From a virus (Duplodnaviria > Heunggongvirae > Uroviricota > Caudoviricetes): a DNA stretch of 40,123 nucleotides. Position 1 is the stretch's first letter; each line of letters begins with the position of its first letter. The stretch is from IMG/VR virus record IMGVR_UViG_2537562231_000015, positions 1-40,123 of that record. One strand, 5' to 3'. The notes below the pieces were generated by a model. It did not search any database. It was not told the origin of the DNA and saw nothing but the letters and a program-made list of their open reading frames with translations. The position numbers were made by a program, and so were the translations under genes. This document shows, in pieces, positions 1 to 35,581 of the stretch.

Positions 1-1188
1 TTATCTGCTCCAACATCTCGTGTTGCGGCGGTCCCTAACTGGAGCGCATTTCGGAAGGCTGATACATCAGAAATATCAGCTCCATTAGCCGATTTCTGCA
101 TAGCTCCGGAGGCTTTATTTATCGTTTCTCCCAAACCAAGGTATGTGAGAAGACCAGCTACATCCTTTCCACTCAAATTAGTCAGCGTATTGTCCAGCGG
201 TTGTTTACCTGCCAGTGCATTAAGCATTGTCGTGGCAAAGTTCGGGTCATTCCCCAGCGCCGCCGCCAGTTCGTTCAGTGTATCCAGTGCCGCAGGTGCA
301 GAACCCACCATTGCCGCAATCGCCGATTTCACAAATGCCGTGGTGGCAATCTGTGTATTGTTGACCGACTGTGCCGCAGTAGGTGCGGTTGGCGTTCCGG
401 TGAGTGCCGGACTCGACAGCGGCGCTTTCAGTGCCAGCGCATTGTTAATGGTGGTACTGAATTTCGGGTCATTGTTAATGGCTGCGGCAATTTCTTTCAG
501 CGTGTCCAGCGTGGCTGGCGCACCATTAATCAGGGTCGTCAGTGCCGCCTGAACAAACGCGGTGGTCGCAAGCTGCGTTGTATTATTCCCCGCCGCTGGC
601 GTTGGCGCTTTGGGGGTTCCGGTAAACGTCGGGCTGTCTTTTGGCGCATACTGTGAATGCGGGTCCGGTGCGGCAAGATGTTTTGCCATCTGATCATCCG
701 CGTACACCTTCAGCTCCAGTACCTTATCATCCACATACTTGCGGGTTGCCAGCACTACGGCAGGGTCAATTTTCAGTGTGATATTGTCCGTACTGCTGGT
801 AATCAGCACCATGCGCACGGTCTGGGTACGCCCGCTGCCTTCAGCCAGTTGCGGTTTATAGCTTTCCGGGCAGTTCCCCACGGCAATCAATGCCCCTGAC
901 TCATCAAACAGGCCCACTTCACGTATCCACCAACCGCCCTCGTTTTCAGGGATCACCTGTTCAGCAATAATCTGGCTGCTATTCTGCGGGTCGATATAAA
1001 GCATATTCAGCGCAGCCCGGCGTTTCTCATTTACCAGTGCCGTCTGCTTTGCGTCCGGCGTTGGCAATACTCCGCCGCCATCGCCCACCGCCATATGGGT
1101 AATTTTTAGCGGCACACCGAGCGCGGCGGCGCTGGCAAGTTTCGCCGCGCCAATATCCGTCAGCAGGGTATAAAATTTTGTGCTCATG
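1..1188 (-). CDS. H: Tail fiber protein (P2 gpH-like), 5' part only; gene continues beyond window start
   Basis: Minus-strand frame open from ATG at 1186-1188 to the window edge; translation MSTKFYTLLTDIGAAKLASAA... resembles P2 gpH N-terminus; lies downstream of gene I as in P2. Confidence 0.8.
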
Positions 1189-1789
1189 GATTCACTCTCA
1201 TTGTGTCAATAACATGGACCGCCCCGCCTTCATGCGCGGTGCCACCGGAAATAATCGTTTCGTTGATATACGGATAGATCGTGATTTCTTCGCCAAGATA
1301 GCTGGCGGCTCCCACCCAATGCGGTCCGCTGGTCTGCAGATTGATGGACATGCCGATCATGTGGCGGCTACATGGTTTGGCATCGCTTATCAGTCGCTCA
1401 AGTTCCAGATAGGTATCTTCAGTGATGCCCTGGTCCTGCACGCCGATATCCAGGCGAAACGTGCCCGGTGCCTCTCCGGTCTGCCACCACTCAATAATGC
1501 GGATCAGAAAGCCGAACGGCTCCACCACCCGCCGCACGGCACTGGTGGTCCCTTTATGCTGATGAATATAAAAAGCATCCTTCACCACCTGGCGCTTGAC
1601 GCTTTCTGTCCAGCCCTCGTCCCAGCGATCCACAGAGAACGCCCAGGCGAGATAAGGCAGGAAACTGACCGGACAGGTTGCCGGATTCCACAAGTCACGA
1701 AGCGGCACCTGCAGATCAGAAATCCCGCTGCAGGTTTGCGCCAGTCGGCGCTCCAGTGGTGTTGAACCCGGTGGCAGCAGACTATTCAT
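1184..1789 (-). CDS. I: Tail/baseplate protein (P2 gpI-like)
   Basis: 201-aa ORF; position between J and H in conserved P2 order; overlaps H start. Confidence 0.8.
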   Translation of the reverse strand: MNSLLPPGSTPLERRLAQTCSGISDLQVPLRDLWNPATCPVSFLPYLAWAFSVDRWDEGWTESVKRQVVKDAFYIHQHKGTTSAVRRVVEPFGFLIRIIEWWQTGEAPGTFRLDIGVQDQGITEDTYLELERLISDAKPCSRHMIGMSINLQTSGPHWVGAASYLGEEITIYPYINETIISGGTAHEGGAVHVIDTMRVNP

Positions 1790-2690
1790 CCGTTCCTCCG
1801 TTGGTTACGCTCCACTGCGTACATGATGCCGCCTGTGTTTTGTTCAGGACCACATCCGCCAGAGGAGAAGCCAGCTCCACACGCTGCACCCCCTCAACAT
1901 GCAGGGCGGCAAAGATGGCGCTACGGCGAATATCCCGACCAAGACGCGTCTGACTGGCGATGTACTTCTGCAGGCTGGCTTTTGCCGCTGCCATTACCGG
2001 CTCTGCTTCCGGTCCAGGATAGAGAAAAATGGTGGCTTCCACGCGATACGGGATGATTTCTGCGCTGCGAACCGTAAGACGGTCAGCCACCGGGCGGACG
2101 TTCTCACTGTTCAGAGCTTTTTCCACCACGTCCAGCAGGTCTTTTTCTGCGGTTCCATCGCCTTCGCGGCTAAGGACAGTCAGCACCACCTCTGCAGGTG
2201 CCGGGCTGGTTGCACTGGCATCCGCCACCCGACCGTCGGCGCTTCGGGCATGAAATTCATAAGCTGCAGTTGGCCCCGCAACTGAAAGCCCTTCAAAGGC
2301 TGCAGGCACACGCAGGCGTAACGCTTCATCGCTTTCCATCACAGCTGCAACGGGCGGCACAGCGTCATTATCAGCAGGCGTCACCGTCAGGCGTTTCACG
2401 TTGTAGTTGGCAGCGAGCTGGTCAAGATCGCTGCCCATCGCGTAAGCCACCATCACAGCCTGCGCGGCTTCGTTAATGCGCTGGCGCAGAAGCAACTCAC
2501 GGTAAGCGTTCTCCTGCAGCAATTTGGTGACGGGTTCAGATTCCAGTTCCAGCGTGCGGATCACTGCTTCCTGCTCATCTTTCGGATGAAGCGCAACAAA
2601 TTCGGCCTTGCGTTCGGCAAGCAGCGTCTCAAAGTCCGGCACATCCACAATCTGCGGCGCAGGCAACTGCGAAAGGTCAATCACTGCCAT
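1782..2690 (-). CDS. J: Baseplate assembly protein J (P2 gpJ-like)
   Basis: ORF 1782..2729; start trimmed to MAVIDLSQLPAP which matches the gpJ N-terminal pattern; synteny W-J-I. Confidence 0.8.
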   Translation of the reverse strand: MAVIDLSQLPAPQIVDVPDFETLLAERKAEFVALHPKDEQEAVIRTLELESEPVTKLLQENAYRELLLRQRINEAAQAVMVAYAMGSDLDQLAANYNVKRLTVTPADNDAVPPVAAVMESDEALRLRVPAAFEGLSVAGPTAAYEFHARSADGRVADASATSPAPAEVVLTVLSREGDGTAEKDLLDVVEKALNSENVRPVADRLTVRSAEIIPYRVEATIFLYPGPEAEPVMAAAKASLQKYIASQTRLGRDIRRSAIFAALHVEGVQRVELASPLADVVLNKTQAASCTQWSVTNGGTDE

Positions 2691-3036
2691 TCTCTGCTCC
2701 AGTTGATACGGAAAGGGAAACAGGCACACCGTTATTACGCCGCCCGCTCAGCGCCACCACCATTGAACCGTCAAAATTGCTGTTAATGGTGATGGAATCC
2801 AGCGTCAGCCGTGGCTCCCAGCGACTCAGCGCCACATACACTGCCGACATGACCTGCAGGCGTAATGCCGGATTTTGTGGCTGGTCTATTAGCGACGACA
2901 GCAGGGAACCATATTCACGACGAGCAATGCGGCTACCCTGCGGCGTCAGCAGAATGTCCCGCACCGACTGGCGCAGATGGTCAATATCAGTAATGACTTT
3001 GCCGCTGGTATTGTTCATCCCGCTATAAAGCGTCAT
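2677..3036 (-). CDS. W: Baseplate wedge protein W (gp25-like)
   Basis: 119-aa ORF, size and position typical of P2 gpW; overlaps J start. Confidence 0.8.
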   Translation of the reverse strand: MTLYSGMNNTSGKVITDIDHLRQSVRDILLTPQGSRIARREYGSLLSSLIDQPQNPALRLQVMSAVYVALSRWEPRLTLDSITINSNFDGSMVVALSGRRNNGVPVSLSVSTGAENGSD

Positions 3037-3611
3037 ACCGGGCCTCCGGTTGTATCGCCGCCTTTCAGGACGCCAGTATGCTGATGCGCATCAACCACGA
3101 TCCCGTTAGAACTCATCGCTCCGCCGCCCTGGGTAACGCCACCATTGATCACCACTTCGCTGTTAATGCGCGTGCGGTCAGCCTCCAGTACAAACTCACT
3201 GGTTTTCATGGTGATGTTGTCAGCGGCCTCAATGACCATTGATTTGATGCCCCTGACATACCAGCGCCCGGTGGCGGGTTCGTATTCAAACCAGCCACCG
3301 TCAGGATGTTCTGTCACGCAGGCGTCCGCCGACGTCGACGGTGGCGCGAACTGATTCGAATAGATGGCGGGTAACGCAAAGGCGGTTTCCAGATTGCCGC
3401 CCAGACTCAGCAGCACCACCTGCTCACCTTCCGATGGTCGCCACCATGTGCGGGCATTCCCGGCACGCAGCGTCAGCCAGCTGATCCAGTTGGTTTCAAG
3501 CTCGCCCGTTTTCACCCGGCAAAGCCAGTTTTCCCTGTCCACTTCGGTGACTACCCCTGTGCGGATCAGGTTGGTGATAAGGCGCATGATTTCGGTTAAT
3601 TGTGCGTTCAT
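3033..3611 (-). CDS. V: Baseplate spike/assembly protein V
   Basis: 192-aa ORF in V position of the P2 gene order. Confidence 0.8.
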   Translation of the reverse strand: MNAQLTEIMRLITNLIRTGVVTEVDRENWLCRVKTGELETNWISWLTLRAGNARTWWRPSEGEQVVLLSLGGNLETAFALPAIYSNQFAPPSTSADACVTEHPDGGWFEYEPATGRWYVRGIKSMVIEAADNITMKTSEFVLEADRTRINSEVVINGGVTQGGGAMSSNGIVVDAHQHTGVLKGGDTTGGPV

Positions 3612-3679: not shown

Positions 3680-4126
3680 TCACCCCGCCAGCCATTGCAG
3701 AATCATGTCGCGGGTCATTGCCTCAACATCATCATTTACACCCAGCAGGCGGCGCTCTGCGTAACGGACCTCCGGTCCTTTGCGACTGACGCGATCACGC
3801 AGGCCGTAATGGTGAACACGGGCAATACGCTGCACCTTGCCTTCAAACTGTACGCTGGCAGAGTCGGCGCTGGCGGCAGTTTTCAGGTATTTTGTGGTGC
3901 GCAGCTTTGCAAACATCTGACGTTTGATGCGCCCCTTCTTGCTGCGTGCTGTTACCCTGCGCGGTTCATAACTGCTGCCATCTGGATTGCGCTGCATCCT
4001 GATATTCTGCTGCTGTGTCCGGCGCAGTTCCTGCGCCAGCTGGCGCATCATGCGGCTTCTCGTGGCTGGTTCCAGATTCGCCAGCAAGGCACTCAGCCAG
4101 TCGTCCACTTTCTGCAGTTCAGCCAC
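3680..4126 (-). CDS. S: Tail completion protein S
   Basis: 148-aa ORF, synteny R-S-V. Confidence 0.75.
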   Translation of the reverse strand: MAELQKVDDWLSALLANLEPATRSRMMRQLAQELRRTQQQNIRMQRNPDGSSYEPRRVTARSKKGRIKRQMFAKLRTTKYLKTAASADSASVQFEGKVQRIARVHHYGLRDRVSRKGPEVRYAERRLLGVNDDVEAMTRDMILQWLAG

Positions 4127-4571
4127 GTTTCACCGTCCACATTTCTTCAGGTTCATCGGGTTCTGCTACAGCTTCAACGCTCGACACACTGCCGTCAGTG
4201 CTGACCAGCACACGTTCCGTCAGTTGCAGGTTAAGACTGATATCACAGACATCGTTGCGCAAAATATCCACATCAAAGGTGAATAGCTTTTCCCGTAACG
4301 CCGGGTTATTGATGGCATCGGGCTGGTTATCCCGCAGCCACAGCAAAACCGGGGCCATAAGCAGATTCTGGTCGCCGCTGAAATCCTCTATCACCACGTT
4401 CAGGGTGTAGCGGTACTCCCATGACATGGAGCTGGCCCCCGTGGCAACCAGCGAACCGTTATCCACAAACAGATGCAGTTTGTCCGGGTTATTGCGGGCA
4501 TAAGGCACCGCTTTATTGAGGGCGTGGCGCAGGGATTGTGGTTTGTTCACTGTTTCGCTCCTGACACGCAA
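4119..4571 (-). CDS. R: Tail completion protein R
   Basis: 150-aa ORF, synteny lysB-R-S, overlaps S start. Confidence 0.75.
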   Translation of the reverse strand: MRVRSETVNKPQSLRHALNKAVPYARNNPDKLHLFVDNGSLVATGASSMSWEYRYTLNVVIEDFSGDQNLLMAPVLLWLRDNQPDAINNPALREKLFTFDVDILRNDVCDISLNLQLTERVLVSTDGSVSSVEAVAEPDEPEEMWTVKRG

Positions 4572-4803
4572 TAATCATGTCCACTTTGTCTGCACAGACC
4601 GCCCAGGCGGCCTCCGTTTCATCCTGCAACGCGTTCAGGTCACCGTTAGTGCGCGGCGCTGCCTGCCCCAGCCGACACGGCGTCACTCGCGGACAACCAC
4701 TGACGGTAAGCTGCACCTCCGGTGAGTGCCGGACGTTCCCGCAGCCGGATAATGTCAGCAGGCAAAGGAGTATCAGCCCAGCGGCGTAAATCCTCGTTCT
4801 CAC
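4513..4803 (-). CDS. lysC: LysC-like o-spanin lipoprotein (Rz1-like), embedded in alternate frame of lysB 3' region
   Basis: 96-aa ORF with lipobox-like LTLSGC near N-terminus; overlaps the lysB ORF out of frame. Confidence 0.5.
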   Translation of the reverse strand: MRTRIYAAGLILLCLLTLSGCGNVRHSPEVQLTVSGCPRVTPCRLGQAAPRTNGDLNALQDETEAAWAVCADKVDMIIACQERNSEQTTIPAPRPQ

Positions 4804-12466: not shown

Positions 12467-14248
12467 TTATATTTTAGCAAACGTTTCTAACGCCAAGCTA
12501 TCTGTTCTTTCTTTTATTAATGAATCATCCCATTTATGTTCTCTTGCTTCTGACTCACTAACAAACTCTGTAACTAATTTTAAATCAGATTTTTTATAAG
12601 ATTCTATTTTTTTGTGCAACTCATAATTCTTGCAATCTTCATTAAGTGAAAAACAGAGTGGTAGTAAATTACCAATCATACCCACGACTGACTCGTTAGT
12701 TTTGCTTTGAGATGATATGTGTTCCAAAGAAACTATATCCATTTTTAACTCTCGCGTCCCTCGTCTGATACGTTCCAACTTGTCAAAAATATAAACAATC
12801 AACTTCCTTTGCCCAGACTTTTTATTTGTATAAACAATATTCTTTGAAAATGCTTGTTTGAATATATTTTCTGAAGGCCCTTTCTGTGTAAAATAATCTA
12901 ATGCGTCATTAATAACACCCTCAACATCTCTTTTATTTAATGCCTTATTCATTCTTACTGCTAATACAGAATATTTTGCATCGATTCCAGATGGTCTTAG
13001 ACGACATACTGCATTAAACTTAAAGTGAAATGACTCTAAGGACTTCAAACATTCTATCAGCATTGATTGTGTAAGGGCTCTCGGTTTCTCTTTACGTTTT
13101 CTAAGTAATGAGAGTACAAATGGTCGAGGAATACTCACATTAAAAATCTCGAATGCTTTTAACGAGTTGTAAATTTCACGCTGATCAGGTTGAGGCCAGT
13201 CATCTGTATTTGGCGCTATTATTTTACAGTATAATTCAACATCATCATATAATTCGTTCAGAAATGATGCTGATGACAATAAAGTATTCTCATCTTGAAT
13301 CTCACGTTTAAAAGCACGATAAAGTTGATCTTCTCCAATATAATTATACTTAGAAAGCCACCACGTTCTAATATAATCAGCAATAGTGCTATTACTATCC
13401 CTAGACTCAATTTGAGTAACGATATAATCCCATTTTGTTTTTGCAATATCTACCGGATATGTTTGAGTGCAAGTTTGGAATACTTTATTCTTTATCAAAT
13501 CAATTGAACTTAAGTTTATCCCTCGAGCATTCAACACTTCAAAAATATCATAAGCATCATCCTCCTTACCTACAGATATTTTTACCAACTTCAAATAATT
13601 GGTAATCATTCTATATACAGCAGTCAAACAAAATATATAATCTTGGTTATTATAATGTTTTGCACCATCTCGCAACAATGCAGAACAGAGTGATTTCCTC
13701 CCTAGTTTTCTAGAAAGAAAAATTCCTGCATAACTTATACGTACATCCTCTTCACAAGATTCATCAACTTGATGCTCTTCGCGATCTTGATATTTTAACT
13801 TAAAATATGTTCTATCGCTATTTTTTGCTAATTTTTCAATAAATGTCTCACCATTTGAGGCTAATTGGCTTCTGCTAAATGTAGGACTCACAGTAACGAT
13901 ATATGTTTTAAATATATCATCCGCTAATGAATCTTGCCCTAAGGAACGCAATTTACGCGATATTAATGAAAGCAATATAGTAATAACTGAAAATCGTTGT
14001 TGTCCATCAACCACTTCTAATACATCATCACTATCTGCTCCAGAAAGAACAATAGTCCCTATAAAATATTCTGAACACTCCAAGTTCTGTCCATCTTCAT
14101 TCAACCTTATGTTTCTGACAATATCTTGCCATAATTCTTCAAGCTGAAGCTTTTCCCAACTAAACTCACGTTGATTACGTGGAATAACATATCTTTGTTT
14201 TACAGATAGAATGTTTTTTATATTTAGTGGTGTTGCATCAAAATTCAT
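12467..14248 (-). CDS. GmrSD-family (DUF262/ParB-like N-terminal, DUF1524-like C-terminal) putative modification-dependent nuclease
   Basis: 593-aa ORF; N-terminal YVIPRNQREFSW and VVDGQQR motifs typical of DUF262; C-terminal LEHI...GNLLPL resembles the DUF1524 His-Me finger; markedly AT-rich versus flanking phage genes. Confidence 0.65.
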   Translation of the reverse strand: MNFDATPLNIKNILSVKQRYVIPRNQREFSWEKLQLEELWQDIVRNIRLNEDGQNLECSEYFIGTIVLSGADSDDVLEVVDGQQRFSVITILLSLISRKLRSLGQDSLADDIFKTYIVTVSPTFSRSQLASNGETFIEKLAKNSDRTYFKLKYQDREEHQVDESCEEDVRISYAGIFLSRKLGRKSLCSALLRDGAKHYNNQDYIFCLTAVYRMITNYLKLVKISVGKEDDAYDIFEVLNARGINLSSIDLIKNKVFQTCTQTYPVDIAKTKWDYIVTQIESRDSNSTIADYIRTWWLSKYNYIGEDQLYRAFKREIQDENTLLSSASFLNELYDDVELYCKIIAPNTDDWPQPDQREIYNSLKAFEIFNVSIPRPFVLSLLRKRKEKPRALTQSMLIECLKSLESFHFKFNAVCRLRPSGIDAKYSVLAVRMNKALNKRDVEGVINDALDYFTQKGPSENIFKQAFSKNIVYTNKKSGQRKLIVYIFDKLERIRRGTRELKMDIVSLEHISSQSKTNESVVGMIGNLLPLCFSLNEDCKNYELHKKIESYKKSDLKLVTEFVSESEAREHKWDDSLIKERTDSLALETFAKI

Positions 14249-23072: not shown

Positions 23073-24086
23073 GTGATCTTAATCTTAAATATGAAACCTA
23101 ATTTAATTTCACGTAAACAGTACCAACACCTCAAAAATGAGTTAAATAGACTTGAGAGCTTACCATATAGACGAGGAAACAACCCAACCAACCTCAGAAT
23201 ATTAAAACTAAGAGAAGATCTAACAAACTCTCTTGTTGAATCCAGAAAAAGAAATTCAAAAAAAATTAATAGAGGAAATGTTAGCTGTATAATATGCAAG
23301 AAAAATTTCAAAAGTGCTCATGGCCTATATGAGCACTATCGCGCCAAGCATAGCAATATGATTGAACACCCTACCTCATTGTTTAATAAAGAAATAAATG
23401 GCAATACAACACTGCTTGAAAGCATTTCGCATCCTGTCACAAAAGGTATACCAATAGCAGAACACGATAAAAAAATATCATCCATTACGCTAAACAGGGA
23501 AACTAAATATTTCAATGTAGATGCGTATAATCTGGCATGCCTTTCATTAACAAAAAGTGAAGCAATAAAAATCGCTAAAGATGAATTATTATCAAGGCAG
23601 TTTCTTGGACAAAAAAACATTCTAGAACCTACTCTACCGCCAGTCATATTTATAAATCCCTCTGATACAATTAGTATACCAGTTGTCACAAAAGGCAATA
23701 CTCATCTGCAAACAATATTACAGCGTGACTCTGGCGAACAGGTTGACTTTAAAAAAAGGGTTCTAAAAAACTTCTCAAATGTATGCGCAATAACAGGTTA
23801 CAACCTCCCAGTATTGCAGGCATGTCACCTTGAACCATTTTCTCAGACCCAAAACCATAGAACCAACAATGGAATACCTCTTGAACCTACCCTTCATGCC
23901 TTGCTTGACCGAGGTCTACTAGCCATACATCCAGATAATTTAACTATTCATTTTGCTATCGATTGCTATTACAAAAATATATATGAAGGAAAAAACATCA
24001 AACCTCATAAGATTGATTTAGATAAAAATTCACTGCTAATAATTTGGAAGAACTTTCTTTTGAATGTTAAAAACAGCCAACCGTAA
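23073..24086 (+). CDS. Zinc-finger plus HNH-like nuclease domain protein (cargo gene)
   Basis: 337-aa AT-rich ORF; C2H2-like CIICKKNF..HGLYEHYRAKH near N-terminus; C-terminal CAITGYN...QACHLEPF...NGIPL...HALLDRGLLAI resembles HNH (HNH_2-like) fold. Confidence 0.55.
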   Translation: MILILNMKPNLISRKQYQHLKNELNRLESLPYRRGNNPTNLRILKLREDLTNSLVESRKRNSKKINRGNVSCIICKKNFKSAHGLYEHYRAKHSNMIEHPTSLFNKEINGNTTLLESISHPVTKGIPIAEHDKKISSITLNRETKYFNVDAYNLACLSLTKSEAIKIAKDELLSRQFLGQKNILEPTLPPVIFINPSDTISIPVVTKGNTHLQTILQRDSGEQVDFKKRVLKNFSNVCAITGYNLPVLQACHLEPFSQTQNHRTNNGIPLEPTLHALLDRGLLAIHPDNLTIHFAIDCYYKNIYEGKNIKPHKIDLDKNSLLIIWKNFLLNVKNSQP

Positions 24087-24417: not shown

Positions 24418-25051
24418 CCAATTCATGAAGGAGCGGCCAAATTGGCAAGAACGACACGCCCCCTGACCAACACAGAAGTACTGCGCGCTAAAGCGTTAGA
24501 AAAGGATCTAACGTTGCATGATGGCGATGGTCTTTTTCTACTCGTTAAAACGAACGGTAAGAAGTTATGGCGTTTCCGTTATCAACGTCCGGCAACAAAG
24601 CAACGGACAATGATGGGGCTAGGAGCCTTCCCAGCCCTTTCACTTGCTGACGCCCGACGCTTAAGAGCGGATTACCTTTCCTTGTTAGCCAACGGAATTG
24701 ACCCGCAAATTCAAGCTGAAATTGCAGAGGAACAGCAGCAAATCGCACAGGACAGTATTTTCTCGACGGTCGCCGCTAATTGGTTTCAGCTCAAAAGCAA
24801 AAGTGTTACCCCTGATTATGCAAAAGATATTTGGCGCTCATTGGAAAAAGATGTATTCCCCGCCGTTGGTGAGATGCCCGTTCAGCAGATCAAAGCTAGA
24901 ACATTGGTCGAAGCACTTGAGCCAGTCAAAGCTCGTGGGGCATTAGAGACTGTACGTCGTCTGGTGCAACGCATTAACGAAATAATGATTTATGCGGTTA
25001 ACACTGGCTTGATTGATGCAAACCCAGCATCAGGTGGGTAATGACTCCAAC

Positions 25052-25555
25052 TTATTGATAGTGTTTTATGTTCAGATAATGCCCGATGACTTTGTCATGC
25101 AGCTCCACCGATTTTGAGAACGACAGCGACTTCCGTCCCAGCCGTGCCAGGTGCTGCCTCAGATTCAGGTTATGCCGCTCAATTCGCTGCGTATATCGCT
25201 TGCTGATTACGTGCAGCTTTCCCTTCAGGCGGGATTCATACAGCGGCCAGCCATCCGTCATCCATATCACCACGTCAAAGGGTGACAGCAGGCTCATAAG
25301 ACGCCCCAGCGTCGCCATAGTGCGTTCACCGAATACGTGCGCAACAACCGTCTTCCGGAGCCTGTCATACGCGTAAAACAGCCAGCGCTGGCGCGATTTA
25401 GCACCGACATAGCCCCACTGTTCGTCCATTTCCGCGCAGACGATGACGTCACTGCCCGGCTGTATGCGCGAGGTTACCGACTGCGGCCTGAGTTTTTTAA
25501 ATGGCGGAAAATCGTGTTGAGGCCAACGCCCATAATGCGGGCGGTTGCCCGGCAT
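25052..25555 (-). CDS. insB: IS1 InsB
   Basis: 167-aa ORF matching IS1 InsB. Confidence 0.9.
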
Positions 25556-25749
25556 CCAACGCCATTCATGGCCATATCAATGATTTTCTGGTGCGTACCG
25601 GGTTGAGAAGCGGTGTAAGTGAACTGCAGTTGCCATGTTTTACGGCAGTGAGAGCAGAGATAGCGCTGATGTCCGGCGGTGCTTTTGCCGTTACGCACCA
25701 CCCCGTCAGTAGCTGAACAGGAGGGACAGCTGATAGAAACAGAAGCCAC
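25474..25749 (-). CDS. insA: IS1 InsA
   Basis: 91-aa [26 protein letters not shown]... matching IS1 InsA. Confidence 0.9.
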
Positions 25750-26411
25750 TGGAGCACCTCAAAAACACCATCATACACTAAATCAGTAAGTTGGCAGCAT
25801 CACCCATCAGGTGTTGGCATGGCCTTCGAAAAGCCAAAAAAACAAAACATGCCGACGCTTCGACCTGAAGAATTACCAAAGCTGATGCGTTCTTTAGTCA
25901 TGTCAAATCTGTCTATCCCGACTCGCTGTCTAATTGAATGGCAACTCCTGACTCTTGTGCGCCCTTCTGAAGCCTCCAGTACTCGGTGGGAAGAAATCGA
26001 TCTTCATGCAAAGCTCTGGACGATTCCTGCCGAACGGATGAAGGCTAAACGGGAACACATAATTCCTCTATCATCTCAGGCATTAGAGATTCTTAATGTG
26101 ATGAAGCCTATTAGTGCTCATCGTGAATATGTTTTTCCGAGTCGGAATGACCCAAAGAAACCAATGAACAGTCAGACTGCAAATGCAGCTTTAAAACGTA
26201 TTGGTTTTGGCGGAAAATTAGTTGCCCATGGATTACGTTCAATAGCAAGTACAGCCATGAATGAAGCTGGATTAAATCCTGATGTTATCGAGTCTGCCTT
26301 AGCCCACAGTGATAAAAATGAAGTTAGAAAAGCATACAATCGTTCTACTTATCTCGTGCAGCGAATTGAATTGATGGATTGGTGGGGAGAATACGTTAAA
26401 AATAAAAGGGG

Positions 26412-28121
26412 TTAGCCCCCCTTTTTTCTATACAATCTCAAGCACTCGTCCAATTCAATAAGTTGTGAATTACTTAATCGTTCTTTTATATAATAAAATA
26501 CATCTTTTACTGAAGCAATTTCTCTCATCGCTCTATTGCCCATTAAAACATAGTCTTGATACATTCCAATTCTGAAGAATGAATTTGCTGCGCAAGCCAA
26601 CATAATTACTTCGGTCATTGCAGGGAGATTTAAACGATTTGGCTTAAATTTATTTTTATCATATTCGTTAAAACAAGACAAAAAGTTTCTCAATGTTTTT
26701 ATATCAGCAATACCATTTGAAACATTAGTAAATGATTTATATAAATATGGAGAGCATGAATACCAATATATATCACAAACAAGTATAGAACTTCGCTTGT
26801 TCGCAAACTCAAGCCATTCACCCTTATTTCCATTATGCATTAAGTTATATAAGAAATAAAAATGCAACAACCCATTTTTATATTCTTTTTTGGATTGATC
26901 ATAGATTATCTCAATTTTGTCCATGATAGACTGCAAATCAGTGACTTCGCCTAAATTTAACATATTTAGGTATTCACTAAACCACTTCGCTATACTTTTA
27001 GCTGTAAATCCGTCTGCATTCCAGAGCCAATATTGTGCAGATATCTCTGCAACCATTACACCCGATGTTTCCATCACCCAATTAACAGACTCTCTTTTTT
27101 GACTGTAGTTTTTACGGCAAAAATTTATTATCACATGGCGAAGAAGTCGAAGCAATCCAGAGTAACTGAAGTGAGGTTCGCCAAAAAGAACCAGACAATC
27201 ACCAACAGGATTGTAGGCTTTCGAGATCATTGCATCAAGTGGCTTAAGCTCATGGACAAAAGAAGACCTGATTTTGTATAAATTATCTAAAGCTCTACTA
27301 AGGAAGCTATAGCGGATTGGATATCTCTCTGTTTCATTGAAATAATTTTCTTCAAGATTTTTCAGTATAAAATCTTTGAACCTTTTTTGTAATCTGAATT
27401 GTTTGCCTTCAATAAGTATTGATTTAATTTTACAAACATCCTCACCAGGCATATGCTCAAATACAGACTCTAATTCACCTCTGGTTTTTTGATCGTAGTC
27501 ATCCCAATCAGACTTATAGTTATCATTTCTTTGAGACAAAGACTCCAAGGCATAGACTAACATGGAATAAGTCAGGTCAAAGTTGGTTGACAATGATTCT
27601 TTTGAATCACTAATTATTTTTAACGCTGCCATTAAAGATTTAAAGGCAGATCTATTTAGATTCACTACATCTTTAATAAAAGCAGAAAACCCAGAGACAT
27701 CATCAAATGAAACTCTTCGATTAATCTCCACTAAATATGGGGCAACTTCAAGCGCAATTTTTGAGTGATGTTTATTAAAATTTGATAATGCACATATTTT
27801 TTTAACCGATTCTTTTTCTACTCTAGCCACACAATCAAAATAGAATTCCCATAATAAAATAAATTGTTGCCTATAATCCTCATCACCAGCCCTAACTACG
27901 ACTCCAGCTTCAATTCGTTCTGGTTTTTCGGTCAGGAGAGTATAGTTTACCACATAACAGTTTATACCATCATGACTTATTTTATTTGCTTTAAAAAGAG
28001 GGGAGGTGTTTTCCACCGAGAAAGACACATCAACATTTGAATAAAAAACAAATGTGCCATCGTGTTTTTCTATTTTATCTAAATCAAAGAACACTCCAGC
28101 TGATATCTGAAACATACTCAT
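26412..28121 (-). CDS. Hypothetical 569-aa protein in the P4 int-cos variable slot (candidate anti-phage defence)
   Basis: Long AT-rich ORF with no recognised family; contains an R-x4-H motif (RSSFVH); sits where P4 carries gop/beta/cII. Confidence 0.6.
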   Translation of the reverse strand: MSMFQISAGVFFDLDKIEKHDGTFVFYSNVDVSFSVENTSPLFKANKISHDGINCYVVNYTLLTEKPERIEAGVVVRAGDEDYRQQFILLWEFYFDCVARVEKESVKKICALSNFNKHHSKIALEVAPYLVEINRRVSFDDVSGFSAFIKDVVNLNRSAFKSLMAALKIISDSKESLSTNFDLTYSMLVYALESLSQRNDNYKSDWDDYDQKTRGELESVFEHMPGEDVCKIKSILIEGKQFRLQKRFKDFILKNLEENYFNETERYPIRYSFLSRALDNLYKIRSSFVHELKPLDAMISKAYNPVGDCLVLFGEPHFSYSGLLRLLRHVIINFCRKNYSQKRESVNWVMETSGVMVAEISAQYWLWNADGFTAKSIAKWFSEYLNMLNLGEVTDLQSIMDKIEIIYDQSKKEYKNGLLHFYFLYNLMHNGNKGEWLEFANKRSSILVCDIYWYSCSPYLYKSFTNVSNGIADIKTLRNFLSCFNEYDKNKFKPNRLNLPAMTEVIMLACAANSFFRIGMYQDYVLMGNRAMREIASVKDVFYYIKERLSNSQLIELDECLRLYRKKGG

Positions 28122-28412
28122 TCCTTAAACTCAATTGGATCAATCTATCTATATTAACGGATATATTAACAGAACAAAATAATCCTATGCAGTAGCCTAG
28201 CTACTCAAACAATTTCATTACGTTTGTAAGCAATACTCTCCCCACTACACCGTCGAAAGGCGGCTATTTACCACTCCCCTCAGAAGCCATCAGCGGCACA
28301 CTTACCAACATTACCGCGCGACGTCAGGCACCTCCCCTATCCCCCCCAGCCCCTTCCCGACGGTGCTCGGGCGCAAAAAACATTAGTAACGAGCACCAAC
28401 CGGGGGCGCGCA

Positions 28413-28431
28413 GTGCTTTCCCCGCCTCGCC
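28413..28431 (-). other. cos site of the P4-like satellite (identical to P2 19-nt cohesive end)
   Basis: Minus strand reads GGCGAGGCGGGGAAAGCAC exactly, within AAAGCGGGCGGGCGAGGCGGGGAAAGCACTGCGCGC. Confidence 0.8.
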
Positions 28432-28532
28432 CGCCCGCTTTGCGGGGCGGTTTTAATGCAGTTGCACTGACACGCTCAGACCGCGCCGGGAATGGCGCGG
28501 TCTGCAGAAAATGAGGCAGGGAAACGCATGCA

Positions 28533-28566
28533 AAGCCATGCACCTTATCGATGCATGGCTTTTTTC
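28533..28566. terminator. Hairpin with flanking A/T runs between cos and psu
   Basis: AGCCATGCA...TGCATGGCT stem followed by TTTTTT on the plus strand and preceded by an A-run (possible bidirectional terminator). Confidence 0.4.
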
Positions 28567-28595
28567 AGTAAAAACGGGCGGATTTTCGGGGAATT

Positions 28596-29168
28596 TTACA
28601 CAGACTGACGTGATGCCAGTTGCGCACTTTTACGCGAAAAAATCATGTTCTGCGCAGGGGTGAATTTTTCACGGCTGTCATCCACCGAAGCCGCGTCAGG
28701 CCTGAATCCGATGGTCGTTAAAATGTCGCTATCCTGTGCGGAATAATTAATTTTTTCACCCTTCGCAAGCCAGGACAGGAGGGCTTCACGCAGGGCATCT
28801 GTGGCACGCTGTATGGCACAGTTTCGGGCAATGGCCGTCAGATCACTGTAGCCCATCAGCTCCGGTGCCAGTGCCGCCGCCAGTGCTGTGCCGTGCTGCT
28901 GCATAAAATCATTCAGCCGGTCGCGGATGCTGATGTGCTGAACGGCTTCATGCGAACGAATATAACGACCGGCGGCCTGATTCACCTGCCATTTTCTGAC
29001 TTCGATAATATTGCGTAATTCGTCCAGGCGACTGACGTTTCTGCCTTCTCCTGACAGAAGCCGCAGATATTCCTGTTCGGCCGCAGCCAGCTCATTTTTG
29101 CGTTGCAGCCATGCTGCTTTGTTATTCTGACAGGTGTCAAAGGCCTGCTGTAAGGCTGTGCTTTCCAT
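28596..29168 (-). CDS. psu: Psu (polarity suppression / capsid decoration) protein
   Basis: 190-aa ORF, same length as P4 Psu, in the sid-delta-psu-cos arrangement. Confidence 0.85.
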   Translation of the reverse strand: MESTALQQAFDTCQNNKAAWLQRKNELAAAEQEYLRLLSGEGRNVSRLDELRNIIEVRKWQVNQAAGRYIRSHEAVQHISIRDRLNDFMQQHGTALAAALAPELMGYSDLTAIARNCAIQRATDALREALLSWLAKGEKINYSAQDSDILTTIGFRPDAASVDDSREKFTPAQNMIFSRKSAQLASRQSV

Positions 29169-29241
29169 CGTTATCTCTTTCTCATCATGCTGAAGAATAA
29201 AAATACGGTGTGTGGCGACGGCCGGTGTTAACCGGCAGCCC

Positions 29242-29742
29242 TCATTCCAGACGCAGCGAATATGATTGTGTTTTTAACCGTACTGGCGGCAGTTCCTGTT
29301 TTTCATGCAGGCGTTCTGCCAGTTCGTCCGGCGTGACCGGGCGGACAATGAAGCGGGTGATGGTCTGAAGCGTTTTAAACACCAGACCACAGCCCGGATC
29401 CGTGCACACATAAAAACGCTCGGTGACTTCCTGAGACAGACGCCGCGATGTTCTTGACAGTGCAAGGCCTTTACATCTCCGACAACAATATCCGGTAACA
29501 AGCATTCTTTTCGGGCGTTTCATACTGCCGGAGGCCGACGTCAGTGAATCGCGGTATCTCTGTTTGCCTGAAATGTATTCCATTCCTGAATCTTTACTGT
29601 CAGAGAAAAAGCTTTCACTCGCTTCAAATGTCGCAGAGCAATAAATATTCCGGCACTGTGCAATCATTATCTTGGTGCCATCGTCCATGAAATGTGCGCG
29701 ACGGGTGTGAGCAACATGTCCACACGACGGGCAGTAAATCAT
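29242..29742 (-). CDS. delta: Delta late-gene transactivator (tandem Ogr-like zinc finger)
   Basis: 166-aa ORF starting MIYCPSCGH with C-x2-C...C-x4-C pattern, a second Cys cluster further on; same length as P4 Delta. Confidence 0.85.
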   Translation of the reverse strand: MIYCPSCGHVAHTRRAHFMDDGTKIMIAQCRNIYCSATFEASESFFSDSKDSGMEYISGKQRYRDSLTSASGSMKRPKRMLVTGYCCRRCKGLALSRTSRRLSQEVTERFYVCTDPGCGLVFKTLQTITRFIVRPVTPDELAERLHEKQELPPVRLKTQSYSLRLE

Positions 29743-30473
29743 GACAGCAGTCCTCTGGCCTTAAGCTCTGCTCCCTGCTGGTCTATTTTGTCCTGCCACA
29801 CCTTGCGCTGTGCCGGTGTGCCTGCCACCTCATAATCCATGTGCGGGAGTGTTGCCGCTGACAGTCCGGTCAGCCGGAGAACCGGCTCGCCGGTGAGGCT
29901 GATTTGCATCTGTTTAATTTTCTGTTCCAGCGATGATTTCACCTGCTGCATGACAGCCTTTTCCGGTGCGACGTAGCCCTGATGGCCGGTGGTGTTGGCG
30001 AGCGGATTTTCCTGTACCAGGATACTCAGATGCATTGCCCGGACAAGCGCCTCACAGGTTTCATTCAGGGCGTGTTCCAGCTCATGCTCTGCATACAGAC
30101 TCAGAAGGTGATGATGTGCCTTCCGGTAGGCGGTGGCCGTGCTGTCACACGCCCCTTTCAGGCGTTCACGTTCAAAATTCAGCACCACGGCCAGATTGTC
30201 ATATTCCTGTACCAGCTCCCGGCGTGCCACGCGCTCAATGTGGCGCTGTTTCAGCTCGTCGCTCAGGACACCACCGGCTGCACGAAAGGCTGTGCGCCAG
30301 TCATCAGCGTCATTTCCGTCGGCCTGCGCCAGCGCATTTTTTTCCTGCTCTGCCCGTTCAATGGCCTTGACGGTCTCATCCATCAGTCGGGCGTTCTCAA
30401 GATGAGCGGCTCTGGCCTTTTCCAGTTGTGCCAGTGCGGGTTGCAGATATTCAGGGATGGTGTTGTCAGACAT
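29739..30473 (-). CDS. sid: Sid capsid size-determination protein
   Basis: ORF 29739..30491 trimmed to MSDNTIPEYLQ (244 aa, P4 Sid length); overlaps delta start. Confidence 0.85.
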   Translation of the reverse strand: MSDNTIPEYLQPALAQLEKARAAHLENARLMDETVKAIERAEQEKNALAQADGNDADDWRTAFRAAGGVLSDELKQRHIERVARRELVQEYDNLAVVLNFERERLKGACDSTATAYRKAHHHLLSLYAEHELEHALNETCEALVRAMHLSILVQENPLANTTGHQGYVAPEKAVMQQVKSSLEQKIKQMQISLTGEPVLRLTGLSAATLPHMDYEVAGTPAQRKVWQDKIDQQGAELKARGLLS

Positions 30474-30516
30474 TTTCCGGCTCCTCGTCACTTCAGATTA
30501 AGAAAATTGTGACGTA

Positions 30517-30573
30517 CACCGGACAACAACACGACGCATTGCAGATGTGCCAGCCCTGACACAGGAGACTCAT
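30517..30573. promoter_or_regulatory. Two TGT-N12-ACA dyads in the sid upstream region (candidate Delta/Ogr sites for Psid and a divergent late promoter)
   Basis: TGTgacgtacaccggACA at 30517-30534 and TGTgccagccctgacACA at 30556-30573. Confidence 0.35.
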
Positions 30574-30639
30574 CCTCAGACCGGCAAGCCAGGAAAAGGT
30601 CGCAGGAAAAACCGGCTTACTGTTTGTTTTTTTATATTT

Positions 30640-30770
30640 TACTGTTCACCTCTGTTCACCATAAGAAAAAAGATAAGTAATACAGTAAGTTAAAGGGTGA
30701 ACAATCGCAGTAATGACTGTTCACCGTCTGTTCACCACTGTTCACCCGCTCATGGACTTTTTGTGCTGTT
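30640..30770. repeat. P4-type replication origin iterons (TGTTCACC octamers)
   Basis: Six copies of TGTTCACC or its complement at 30643, 30653, 30696, 30718, 30729 and 30739. Confidence 0.6.
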
Positions 30771-31025
30771 TACTACTGTTTGTTTTTATTAATTCGCCGT
30801 GAATGAATAAGAAGAAACGATTTGTATTTCACTATAAAAATTACGAATTGCATTAAGTGGCTTTAAATGACTTTAAGTGGGAATGAACAAAAAACACACA
30901 GTCATTGTAAGGCTGCCGGAACAAATCCCCCCTGTTGCGTCTGCCAAAAATATTCACAAAATAAAGCGCTACCCGAAGCCGGACGGACTTATCCGGTGCT
31001 GTATGGACATTAACGAGGTAGCCCG

Positions 31026-31292
31026 ATGCAAGCTGTTTTTTCTTCCCCGTCTCCCGCCCCTGTGACGCCACTGATGCCGCTGCCGGACATCACGCAGGAG
31101 CGTTTTTTACGTCTGCCGGAAGTGATGCACCTGTGCGGCCTGTCACGCTCGACCATCTATGAACTCATCCGTAAGGGGGAATTTCCGCCGCAGGTGAGTC
31201 TTGGCGGTAAAAATGTGGCCTGGCTGCACTCTGAAGTCACCGCATGGATGGCCGGACGCATTGCCGGACGCAAACGGGGGTACGACGCATGA
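31026..31292 (+). CDS. vis: Vis/AlpA-family excision regulator (P4 orf88 equivalent)
   Basis: 88-aa ORF with AlpA-like HTH ([27 protein letters not shown]); GAGGTAG SD. Confidence 0.75.
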
Positions 31293-31325
31293 TGATGCCC
31301 GCTCTGCAAAAACTCCCTTTTTCTG

Positions 31326-31355
31326 GCTTGCCTTTTTCCGGCATTTGCGGATATA
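31326..31355 (+). promoter_or_regulatory. Candidate sigma70 promoter (PLE-like)
   Basis: TTGCCT, 18-bp spacer, TATAGT; upstream of the RNA-immunity region. Confidence 0.35.
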
Positions 31356-31510
31356 GTTTTTCCGCTGCCGCAAAATCGGCAGCCGGGCGTAGGAACCCGA
31401 GTTACTTCAAGGCGACATATGACGCGCCATGCGTCTTTTTTTACGTCGTTGCTTCGGCACACCTGTTTTTCTGGCTGTGGTTTTTAAACCGTAGCCTCTG
31501 TCAGATAATG

Positions 31511-31590
31511 GTGGTCCGGGCGGGGCAGCCTTCGGGCTGGCCGGTTTCCTTGAAGGCCGGTATTCCTACCCCCGTCCGGGCTACCACCCA
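31511..31590 (+). ncRNA. cI: Candidate P4-type CI immunity RNA
   Basis: Structured GC-rich segment containing CCTTGAAGG and TATTCCTAC, complementary to repeated GTAGGAAC...ACTTCAAGG elements at 31385-31412 and 31595-31640. Confidence 0.45.
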
Positions 31591-31645
31591 TGAGCGTAGG
31601 AACTCCAGTGGTAGCTGTAACTGTTACTTCAAGGAGGCTGCCATC

Positions 31646-31843
31646 ATGGCTACAACCCTTACCCCCTCACACCCTGAATTTGTCTTTGTGTTTGCGGCTG
31701 TCCGTCGCGCAGGCCGTCATCCCCGTATCTGTATGCTTCGCACCGTCGCCGGTGATGAACGCAGCGCCCGCCGTTCCCTTGTCCGTGACTATGTGCTCTC
31801 CCTTGCTGCCCGTCTGCCGGTGGTGGAGGTGTCCCGTGCGTAA
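31646..31843 (+). CDS. Small protein downstream of the immunity RNA
   Basis: 65-aa ORF with AAGGAGG SD that overlaps the downstream target repeat. Confidence 0.4.
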
Positions 31844-32100
31844 TAAAAAAGCCCCTCAGACCGTCTCAGCACGTCATGACGCCCGTGAACACCTCAGCAT
31901 TGAGGCTTACCATAAGCTCAACCGCGCCAGCGCCGTATCCCAGTTTGTTGGGGGTGATTTGATTCACCGTGAACTCTCCGGCCTGCATCAGCTCTACATT
32001 CCGCATATTTTCAGCGTAAGCGTAAACTGACCGCCGTATGTAGCCATCAGACGAGAATTGGTAACTTAGACGCCCATCTGATATAGACGGACATCTAAGT

Positions 32101-32526
32101 ATGGAATTACAGGACTGGCGAAAAGAACCTCGTAAAAACTATTCGAATGAATTCAAACTTCGTATGGTGGAACTGGCATCACAACCTGGAGCTTGTGTTG
32201 CACAGATTGCACGTGAAAATGGCGTCAATGATAATGTTATTTTCAAATGGCTCAGGCTCTGGCAGAACGAAGGGCGTGTTTCGCGGCGTCTTCCGGTAAC
32301 GACCTCTTCTGACACTGGCGTTGAATTATTACCTGTAGAAATAACGCCGGATGAGCAGAAAGAACCTGTGGCGGCCATTGCGCCGTCTTTATCCACTTCC
32401 ACTCAGACCAGAGTCAGTGCCAGTTCCTGCAAGGTGGAATTCCGTCACGGTAACATGACGCTGGAAAATCCATCGCCAGAGCTGCTCACAGTGTTGATCC
32501 GTGAACTGACCGGGAGGGGAAGATGA
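32101..32526 (+). CDS. IS66-family accessory protein (orf1/TnpA)
   Basis: 141-aa ORF, first gene of the IS66 three-gene array. Confidence 0.8.
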   Translation: MELQDWRKEPRKNYSNEFKLRMVELASQPGACVAQIARENGVNDNVIFKWLRLWQNEGRVSRRLPVTTSSDTGVELLPVEITPDEQKEPVAAIAPSLSTSTQTRVSASSCKVEFRHGNMTLENPSPELLTVLIRELTGRGR

Positions 32527-32873
32527 TCTCACTCCCATCAGGTACCCGTATCTGGCTCGTTGCCGGCGTTACCGATATGCGTAAATCCTTCAACGGACTG
32601 GGAGAACAGGTACAACATGTGCTGAATGATAATCCCTTCTCCGGTCACCTGTTTATCTTCCGTGGCCGACGGGGTGACACCGTCAAAATTCTTTGGGCTG
32701 ATGCTGATGGTCTGTGCCTGTTCACCAAACGCCTGGAGGAAGGCCAGTTTATCTGGCCTGCGGTACGTGACGGCAAGGTATCCATTACCCGCTCGCAACT
32801 GGCAATGCTCCTCGATAAGCTGGACTGGCGTCAGCCAAAAACATCCAGCCGTAACTCACTGACAATGTTGTAA
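32523..32873 (+). CDS. IS66-family Orf2 (TnpB)
   Basis: 116-aa ORF overlapping orf1 stop; conserved IS66 orf2 size. Confidence 0.85.
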   Translation: MISLPSGTRIWLVAGVTDMRKSFNGLGEQVQHVLNDNPFSGHLFIFRGRRGDTVKILWADADGLCLFTKRLEEGQFIWPAVRDGKVSITRSQLAMLLDKLDWRQPKTSSRNSLTML

Positions 32874-32903
32874 AAAACTCCTGACCGCATTATAAAAACG
32901 GTC

Positions 32904-34517
32904 ATGAGTCAGAAATACCTCATTCGCATCGCAGAGCTGGAAAGGTTGCTCTCTGAGCAGGCTGAAGCCCTCCGTCAGAAAGACCAGCAACTGAGTCTGG
33001 TTGAAGAGACGGAAGCCTTCCTGCGCTCTGCACTGACACGTGCCGAAGAAAAGATCGAAGAAGATGAACGGGAAATAGAACATCTGCGGGCTCAGATAGA
33101 AAAACTGCGCCGGATGCTGTTCGGTACCCGTTCTGAAAAACTGCGTCGTGAAGTTGAACTGGCTGAGGCTCTGCTGAAACAACGTGAACAGGACAGCGAT
33201 CGTTACAGTGGGCGGGAAGACGATCCTCAGGTTCCCCGCCAGTTGCGACAGTCGCGCCATCGTCGTCCGTTACCGGCACACCTTCCCCGTGAAATACACC
33301 GCCTGGAGCCAGAAGAAAGCTGTTGCCCGGAGTGTGGCGGTGAGCTGGATTATCTGGGGGAAGTCAGCGCTGAACAGCTGGAACTGGTGAGCAGTGCCCT
33401 GAAAGTGATCCGCACAGAACGGGTAAAAAAAGCCTGTACAAAATGTGACTGTATTGTTGAAGCACCGGCGCCGTCCCGCCCGATAGAGCGTGGTATCGCG
33501 GGCCCCGGATTACTTGCCCGCGTGTTAACGGGAAAATACTGCGAACATCTGCCACTGTATCGTCAGAGTGAAATCTTTGCCCGCCAGGGTGTCGAACTGA
33601 GCCGGGCCTTACTCTCCAACTGGGTTGACGCGTGCTGCCAGTTAATGACACCGGTGAATGATGCCCTGTACCGTTATGTAATGAACACCCGCAAGGTTCA
33701 CACTGATGACACACCGGTAAAGGTACTGGCACCGGGTCAGAAAAAGGCGAAAACAGGGCGTATCTGGACGTATGTCCGGGATGATCGCAATGTGGGTTCG
33801 TCATCTCCTCCAGCGGTCTGGTTCGCGTACTCGCCGAACCGGCAGGGGAAACACCCGGAGCAACACCTCCGCCCCTTCCGGGGTATCCTGCAGGCGGATG
33901 CGTTCACAGGTTACGACAGGTTGTTCAGTGCAGAACGTGAAGGTGGTGCACTGACAGAAGTTGCGTGCTGGGCCCATGCCCGGCGAAAAATCCACGATGT
34001 ATACATCAGCAGCAAAAGTGCGACGGCAGAAGAAGCCCTGAAGCGAATCAGTGAACTGTACGCCATCGAGGATGAAATACGGGGATTACCGGAGTCAGAG
34101 CGTCTTGCCGTCAGGCAGCAGCGAAGCAAAGTGTTACTGACGTCGCTGCATGAATGGATGGTGGAGAAGAATGGTACGCTGTCGAAAAAATCCAGACTGG
34201 GCGAAGCGTTCAGCTATGTACTGAATCAGTGGGATGCCCTCTGTTATTACAGTGATGACGGTCTGGCGGAGGCGGATAATAATGCTGCGGAAAGAGCGCT
34301 TCGTGCAGTCTGTCTCGGAAAGAAAAACTTTATGTTCTTTGGCAGCGATCACGGCGGCGAGCGTGGAGCACTGTTGTACGGGCTGATCGGCACCTGCCGT
34401 CTGAACGGTATCGATCCGGAAGCGTATCTGCGCCATATCCTGAGCGTACTGCCGGAATGGCCTTCCAACCGAGTTGACGAACTCCTGCCATGGAACGTAG
34501 TACTCACCAATAAATAA
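32904..34517 (+). CDS. IS66-family transposase (TnpC)
   Basis: 537-aa ORF with N-terminal coiled coil, zinc-finger-like CPECGG and C-terminal DDE region. Confidence 0.9.
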   Translation: MSQKYLIRIAELERLLSEQAEALRQKDQQLSLVEETEAFLRSALTRAEEKIEEDEREIEHLRAQIEKLRRMLFGTRSEKLRREVELAEALLKQREQDSDRYSGREDDPQVPRQLRQSRHRRPLPAHLPREIHRLEPEESCCPECGGELDYLGEVSAEQLELVSSALKVIRTERVKKACTKCDCIVEAPAPSRPIERGIAGPGLLARVLTGKYCEHLPLYRQSEIFARQGVELSRALLSNWVDACCQLMTPVNDALYRYVMNTRKVHTDDTPVKVLAPGQKKAKTGRIWTYVRDDRNVGSSSPPAVWFAYSPNRQGKHPEQHLRPFRGILQADAFTGYDRLFSAEREGGALTEVACWAHARRKIHDVYISSKSATAEEALKRISELYAIEDEIRGLPESERLAVRQQRSKVLLTSLHEWMVEKNGTLSKKSRLGEAFSYVLNQWDALCYYSDDGLAEADNNAAERALRAVCLGKKNFMFFGSDHGGERGALLYGLIGTCRLNGIDPEAYLRHILSVLPEWPSNRVDELLPWNVVLTNK

Positions 34518-34655
34518 GCGTCAATACGGTGCTCCGTTGACGCTTACTTTTCAGCTACCTGAATGAAGATATTGATTTTGTGCTGAATGAGCTGAAAGCC
34601 AAAGGCCTGTGCCGCGATTTTCTCGCCCAGCAGAAAGACCGGGGAGACAGGACGC

Positions 34656-35111: not shown

Positions 35112-35246
35112 TTAAAAAACGACACCCGAAAAATTAAATGTGCGTATTCGCGCAGGGATACGCACGTCTTCAGGAGACGCAGATATGCCTTATCAGTTAA
35201 TGCAACCGGCACGGAATGCAGTCATCTGTCACAGGGAGGAAAGCAA

Positions 35247-35567: not shown

Positions 35568-35581
35568 AGGAGAACAACACC

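Follow-up and report, generated by a model that had tools for sequence, protein, structure and literature searches.

The window analysed here, a stretch of 40,123 nucleotides from a virus of the class Caudoviricetes (record IMGVR_UViG_2537562231_000015), begins inside a tail-fibre gene that encodes two 74-residue units placed head to tail. These units are very probably two tandem modules of the fibre shaft that descend from an old duplication, and the number of such units has been changed occasionally in related fibres by in-register recombination.

The first 395 codons of the gene lie in the window, and the remainder extends past the window start. Full-length relatives that are 98-99% identical over all 395 residues have 505 aa, which places ~110 C-terminal residues outside the window. 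At aa 1-150, the protein matches the whole 150-position profile of PF12571, the Pfam model 'Phage tail-collar fibre protein, N-terminal' (E 4.5e-65, 218.7 bits against a cut-off of 23), and it also matches phrog_327 'tail protein' (E 1.4e-166). A gpI homologue is located directly upstream and overlaps the start codon of the fibre gene. The ORFs upstream on the same strand match, in order, Phage_base_V, GPW_gp25, Baseplate_J and Tail_P2_I (gpV, gpW, gpJ and gpI). Three relatives examined at the DNA level (L001-L003) have the identical gpV-gpW-gpJ-gpI order before the fibre gene, and a tail-fibre assembly gene (gpG / Caudo_TAP) follows it in these three and in L009-L013. On the strength of the PF12571 match and of the gpI, gpJ, gpW and gpV neighbours, we assign the gene to the P2 gpH-type tail fibres (Peduoviridae) of a P2-like prophage. 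A preliminary description of this DNA, made from the letters alone, had already placed a repeat within a tail-fibre gene, and the adaptor domain and the adjoining baseplate genes bear this out. According to a 2026 preprint on P2, gpH is a 54-nm homotrimer in which an N-terminal adaptor, the part that binds gpI, is followed by serial domains. The features of the gene and its surroundings are the following.

3..1187, minus strand: tail-fibre gene of the P2 gpH type, with its ATG at 1187 (translation, PF12571, phrog_327).
1184..1789, minus strand: gpI homologue, the baseplate wedge protein holding the fibre (PF09684 Tail_P2_I, E 7.3e-55).
738..1187, minus strand: N-terminal tail-collar fibre or baseplate-adaptor domain, aa 1-150 (PF12571).
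426..647, minus strand: repeat unit A, aa 181-254, APKDSPTFTGTPKAPTPAAGNNTTQLATTAFVQAALTTLINGAPATLDTLKEIAAAINNDPKFSTTINNALALK (self-diagonal at an offset of 74 aa; unit HMM positions 1-74).
537..647, minus strand: N-half of unit A, aa 181-217, of the SP.FTG.P.APT....N.TQ.ATTAFV type (matches to 9k09 and 9cuy; arrays of the N-half only).
426..536, minus strand: C-half of unit A, aa 218-254, of the AP..LDTL.E.A.A..NDP.F.TT type, with short helices predicted (9d93 and 6v8i, tblastn, AF2).
204..425, minus strand: repeat unit B, aa 255-328, APLSSPALTGTPTAPTAAQSVNNTQIATTAFVKSAIAAMVGSAPAALDTLNELAAALGNDPNFATTMLNALAGK (self-diagonal at an offset of 74 aa; unit HMM).
315..425, minus strand: N-half of unit B, counterpart of the N-half of unit A.
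204..314, minus strand: C-half of unit B, counterpart of the C-half of unit A.
189..203, minus strand: end of the repeat, QPLDN after unit B, which aligns with the unit-start APLSS (ungapped alignment to aa 259/333).
3..125, minus strand: start of the exchangeable distal fibre, from ~aa 355 (end of DNA similarity to many relatives).

Several other loci were observed in the window. P2-like phages carry variable anti-phage cargo at a position beside the portal gene, and here the P2-like portal gene adjoins a 593-aa ORF (12467-14248, minus strand) whose GmrSD_N and GmrSD_C domains mark it as a type IV restriction-like nuclease. An ORF with an HNH_2 endonuclease domain lies just past the P2-type integrase (23073-24086, plus strand). 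Directly beside the P2-like helper prophage is a P4-like satellite (24442-37915), which encodes Psu (28596-29168) and an alpha-type primase-helicase (35582-37915). Its integrase is apparently split, with the arm-binding and central domains at 24442-25041 and the catalytic domain at 25819-26415, and an IS66-family element is inserted in the satellite at ~32101-34517. Variable defence genes occur between the integrase and psu in P4-like satellites; in this one, the position is taken by a 569-aa ORF with no Pfam match (26412-28121, minus strand). Near the window end, an autotransporter beta-domain ORF (38578-39288, minus strand) matches only the C-terminal part of the profile.

When the 395-aa translation of the fibre gene was compared with itself, the best ungapped diagonal lay at an offset of 74 aa and paired aa 181-259 with aa 255-333. 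Its score was 235 (BLOSUM62), against 34.7 +/- 5.1 and a maximum of 57 in 60 protein shuffles. The internal similarity for which the preliminary description had proposed a self-comparison is thus present in the fibre, and its word 'tandem' also holds, as units A and B lie head to tail with zero spacer at an offset of exactly 74 aa. The period of ~135 bp given there has to be replaced by 222 nt (74 aa), 135 bp being the length of the best-conserved core: the motif of 45-48 aa that was quoted (TAFV...K.PL) represents only this core in each unit, and the 87 nt between the two cores are also repeated (SP.FTGTP.APT....N.TQ.ATTAFV). Its interval of 228-590 falls inside the repeat (aa 200-320) and covers ~80% of it, the true bounds being 204-647. 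The similarity continues for five residues past unit B, as far as window position 189. At an offset of 37 aa, which would pair the N-half with the C-half, the self-similarity score was 46, within the shuffle range (maximum 57).

At the protein level, the units are 58% identical (46/79 residues in the ungapped alignment including the trailing residues; 59% in the unit comparison). Their DNA is 60% identical (143/237), with a longest exact run of 11 nt. The identity amounts to 66%, 80% and 35% at codon positions 1, 2 and 3, respectively, and the Nei-Gojobori estimates are 0.35 for dN and 1.86, i.e. saturated, for dS. Tandem Repeats Finder reported no repeat at a minimum score of 30, because the copies are too diverged in DNA, and a seed-based repeat finder returned a single family of 19 nt, its members 222 nt apart, and otherwise chance pairs. 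The DNA of the two copies is, then, less similar than repeat finders and homologous misalignment demand of a DNA-level tandem repeat or VNTR. By these measures, A and B appear to be an ancient duplication kept by purifying selection on the protein, not a tandem repeat at the DNA level. Two plus-strand ORFs that run over the repeat (145-552 and 201-656) were rejected as antisense artefacts; the codon-position identity and all homologues favour the minus-strand frame.

The two halves of the unit have separate relatives among solved structures. Sequence matches in the PDB to the N-half were 9k09 and 9cuy, both tail fibre proteins, and they were confined to profile positions 1-37. The C-half was matched at profile positions 27-70 by 9d93, 'tail collar fibers gp4' (E 8.7e-12), and by 6v8i, the FibU protein of 80alpha. 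Each of these four solved fibres contains one half of the unit by sequence, and the full 74-aa unit is present in none of them. The paper on 80alpha FibU left the region that matches the unit unresolved in its map (6v8i). Minor tail proteins of mycobacteriophages, Gordonia phages and others likewise matched the C-half only in tblastn searches. An AF2 monomer model of the two units, built from a 19-row alignment, was of low confidence (mean pLDDT 58, pTM 0.25) and too weak for a fold search, so its secondary structure alone was used, as weak evidence: the N-half is extended and non-helical, and each C-half has three short helices. No Pfam or NCBIfam model covers aa 181-328. Matches to Acyl-CoA_ox_N (E 0.063) and DUF2523 (E 0.014) were below the cut-offs and were taken as spurious. 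PF03406 'Phage tail fibre repeat', which we take to be the short repeat of P2 gpH and Mu S, gave no match to the fibre at E<=1, and the motif string LDTLNELA gave no result in the literature searched. Our conclusion is that the unit serves as a module of a trimeric fibre shaft, which each further copy would lengthen by a fixed amount.

The module is widespread. A profile built from units A and B was searched against 1.84 billion protein cluster representatives, of which 45,873 matched at E<=1e-3 and 13,879 at E<=1e-10. Among the best 150 profile matches, arrays contain as many as 9-11 full units, consecutive ones being most often 74 aa apart, and the N-half alone (~35-39 aa) forms arrays of up to ~21 copies. 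Proteins with 9-11 full units include P0122 (1,039 aa) and P0121 (6,556 aa), and N-half-only arrays of ~20 copies were seen in P0123 and P0126. The unit is also embedded in dozens of PHROG tail-fibre families.

Among phage genomes, a tblastn search with the two units found the pair in the S gene of phage P1, with 79.7% identity over 148 aa. The match coincides with two features of GenBank record AF234173, 'repeated element b1' (223 nt) and 'repeated element b2' (222 nt), which cite locus PP1RP / M81956. As with b1 and b2, there are two adjacent units here with a 222-nt period, the first b1-like and the second b2-like: at the amino acid level, unit A is 77% identical to b1, 58% to b2 and 59% to unit B, and unit B is 82% identical to b2 and 68% to b1. 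Since A is closer to b1, and B to b2, than they are to one another, homogenisation between A and B is not ongoing. This correspondence also means that the A-then-B pair either predates the divergence of the genes or moved between them as a block. The pair is best regarded as the counterpart of P1 b1/b2 and as a feature of an already known kind. In P1 S, the two units belong to the constant part, Sc, where they stand head to tail and N-proximal, upstream of the exchangeable or invertible distal part and with the A-type unit (b1) first, and the fibre described here has the same layout. The N-termini differ, being of the P2 gpH type (PF12571) in this fibre, whereas P1 S has its own N-terminus and extra 'a0/a1' repeats. 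A Cin-invertible C segment follows b1/b2 in P1; the window ends before the corresponding position.

A single B-type unit was found in P2 gpH, P88 and lambda Stf (81%, 81% and 76% aa identity to unit B, respectively). With P2 gpH, the fibre shares this unit, the PF12571 N-terminal adaptor and the V-W-J-I-H gene order, but canonical gpH has one unit instead of two and a different C-terminal receptor-binding part. P2 gpH also carries two copies of another short repeat (TAKGFTQLSSATNSTSETLAATPKAVK type) before its unit, which the fibre here lacks; the place of that short repeat is occupied in this fibre by the 74-aa units. Lambda Stf and P88 have the module in common with unit B, in one copy only and on unrelated virion architectures. 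Mu S shares with the fibre the segment just after the unit, LGL.ETVN.ASGA.Q...NGADI. A preprint on a tailocin 'fibre length haplotype' has a subject other than repeats.

Downstream of the units, the DNA similarity to many relatives breaks sharply at ~aa 354 (window ~126), immediately past the motif YLGLGE. In megablast, the matches of 34 phage records and many of those of E. coli reach no further than query nt 1061-1065, corresponding to window positions ~123-127. Beyond the break, the C-terminal domains of the relatives differ, being PF21882 (Gp53-like_C), PF07484 (Collar), other or none. The break marks the boundary at which the distal receptor-binding part is exchanged; in phage fibres, receptor specificity is expected to reside in the C-terminal part. 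In L001 (E. coli CP182004.1), a resolvase/invertase gene (Resolvase + HTH_7) is located at 4035-4601, just past the fibre-assembly gene, and L009 and L013 have second fibre-assembly and gp53-like genes in inverted orientation. Invertible fibre ends of the Cin/Gin type are suggested for this prophage group, the corresponding region lying outside the window.

The number of units was then compared among relatives. An HMM of the unit, applied to the 120 best close homologues, detected two units in 106, three in 14 and four in 1, always in exact 74-aa register. In seven of the 14 three-unit proteins (a 543-aa group), the third unit is a different, diverged one inside another C-terminal module, and the remaining three-unit proteins have an extra chimeric unit between A and B. 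The DNA was read for three relatives with three units (L001, L002 and L003) and for one with a single unit (L013, from E. coli KFu015), and chimeras were scored at every site where the gene's own A and B units differ. The middle unit of L001 is B-type at 62 consecutive diagnostic sites and A-type thereafter, with 87 of 88 sites fitting one switch, which falls inside an 8-nt shared stretch (ACACTGAA). Its left 149 nt are identical to unit 3 of the same gene, and its right part equals that gene's unit 1 with one mismatch. In L003, eight B-type sites are followed by 81 A-type sites, and all 89 fit one switch inside AGTCCG. The switch in L002 lies at ~nt 87-90, with 70 of 85 sites consistent and more later substitutions, which points to an older event. 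All three middle units are therefore B-left/A-right chimeras with three different switch points, the product expected when unit B of one copy undergoes unequal exchange, in register, with unit A of another. Conversely, L013 has a single unit whose A-type sequence extends to nt 210 and whose B-type sequence starts at nt 217, the chimera expected of a contraction. The L013 fibre gene is an intact 427-aa ORF (2001-3284 in NZ_CP147130.1). Its short length relative to the reference proteins is the apparent reason why PGAP labels it as a pair of 'incomplete' pseudogene fragments. At least four independent unit-number events can thus be counted, all in register and with switches within 2-8 nt of microhomology. 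As these junctions show, the units have served in relatives as in-register recombination substrates that changed fibre length. The parents of such intragenic-type exchanges could have been two co-resident prophage copies.

To gauge how common the variants are, the 540 nt before unit A were joined to the 78 nt after unit B and searched against 5,426 complete RefSeq E. coli genomes; the frequencies given here refer to 60 rows spread evenly down the ranking, together with the 120 best protein clusters, and are a sample, not a census. In every one of the 37 sampled rows with a match to both flanks, the span is exactly 1,062 nt, which corresponds to two units. Five sampled rows were without the 3' flank: two units, joined to a different distal sequence, are present in four of them, and a single unit in the fifth (KFu015). 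Exactly two units were consequently present in 41 of 42 sampled E. coli prophage loci, and one unit in the other. Probes of 64 nt across the three expansion junctions detected no credible three-unit junction and no credible full-length match in the same 5,426 genomes. Repeat number among related prophages, a comparison advised in the preliminary description, does vary, from one to four units, but rarely.

The chimeric junction units and the series of one to four units among close relatives could also be taken as marks of an active recombination hotspot or contingency locus, at which frequent unequal crossing-over would quickly vary the length of the fibre and with it the host range. This is improbable in view of the 60% nucleotide identity, the longest exact run of 11 nt and the saturated dS, the two units in 37 of 37 sampled genomes with both flanks, and the lack of a credible three-unit junction in the 5,426 complete RefSeq E. 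coli genomes. In addition, A and B are closer to P1 b1 and b2 than to one another, which argues against concerted evolution. Copy number is commonly polymorphic among close relatives at a VNTR-type contingency locus; here, variants exist but are rare. The predominance of two units and the absence of A/B homogenisation indicate that the two-unit state is stable, and that the length changes now and then in evolution instead of being switched fast. The preliminary claim that the repeats are recombination substrates altering fibre length is accordingly upheld by the junctions and the unit series, and has to be tempered as regards frequency and the window's own copies: with 60% identity and no exact match above 11 nt, A and B are poor substrates for ordinary homologous recombination.

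Alternatively, the one-, three- and four-unit alleles could have been acquired horizontally, as whole fibre segments traded with other phages that have P1, lambda or Mu-type fibres. In favour of this stand the mosaic nature of tail-fibre genes, the presence of the module in P1 S, lambda Stf and P2 H, and the abrupt loss of similarity at ~aa 354. Import is nevertheless very unlikely, because the chimeric units of L001 and L003 match the flanking units of their own gene almost perfectly, with a single switch (89/89 sites in L003), and the single unit of L013 passes from A-type to B-type after nt 210.

An imperfect repeat of roughly 100-200 bp together with a phage tail-fibre gene is also reminiscent of a diversity-generating retroelement that targets the fibre, with one copy as template and the other as variable repeat. 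This reading is excluded by the kind of mismatches and by how the copies are arranged: instead of being confined to adenine, the 87 mismatches involve all four bases (A/C/G/T = 31/23/22/11 in unit A), and the two copies are in-frame neighbours within the gene, well away from its C-terminal end. Moreover, the pair is conserved in P1, and no reverse-transcriptase domain was found in the 20 large ORFs scanned against Pfam across the window, a set that includes only some of the ORFs under ~190 aa. Finally, a compositional artefact of a low-complexity stretch, which the richness of the region in Ala, Thr and Pro and the silence of DNA repeat finders might suggest, is excluded by the shuffle test (a self-score ~39 standard deviations above composition-preserving shuffles) and by thousands of specific homologues, with an exact 74-aa register in 120 of them and 45,873 cluster representatives matching the two-unit profile.

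The reading that we favour, two tandem shaft modules of ancient origin with an occasionally changing unit number, places the pair in the proximal shaft of a trimeric P2-type fibre, after the baseplate-attachment domain (aa 1-150) and before the exchangeable receptor-binding end. Each module would combine an extended, Pro/Thr-rich N-half (SP.FTG.P.APT....N.TQIATTAFV) with a short-helix C-half (AP..LDTL.ELA.AL.NDP.F.TT...AL..K) and contribute a fixed increment of rigid shaft, and the number of units would set the distance of the receptor-binding tip from the baseplate. In relatives, in-register recombination between diverged units, at microhomology of a few bases, has given rise to the chimeric junction units and to the series of one to four units. 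Candidate pathways are RecA-independent microhomology events, replication slippage and events mediated by a phage recombinase. In-register products may be the sole ones seen because selection removes the others.

Host range, which the preliminary description also named, may conceivably be affected as well: it is plausible that shaft length helps the fibre to reach receptors through O-antigen or capsule. That unit number acts as an evolutionary length dial, fitting the reach of the tip to the thickness of the host O-antigen or capsule through rare, microhomology-mediated in-register changes, is a more specific proposal, which we put forward tentatively and consider rather doubtful. If true, it would provide a route to host-range change that is independent of receptor-binding-domain swapping.

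The module is present in ~46,000 cluster representatives without a Pfam or NCBIfam model and is, as a result, left unlabelled by annotation pipelines. Automatic annotation can also mislabel length variants of the fibre, as in the case of E. coli KFu015. For fibre engineering, the natural series of one to four units, with its mapped junctions, indicates where the shaft can be lengthened or shortened in register while the protein stays intact.
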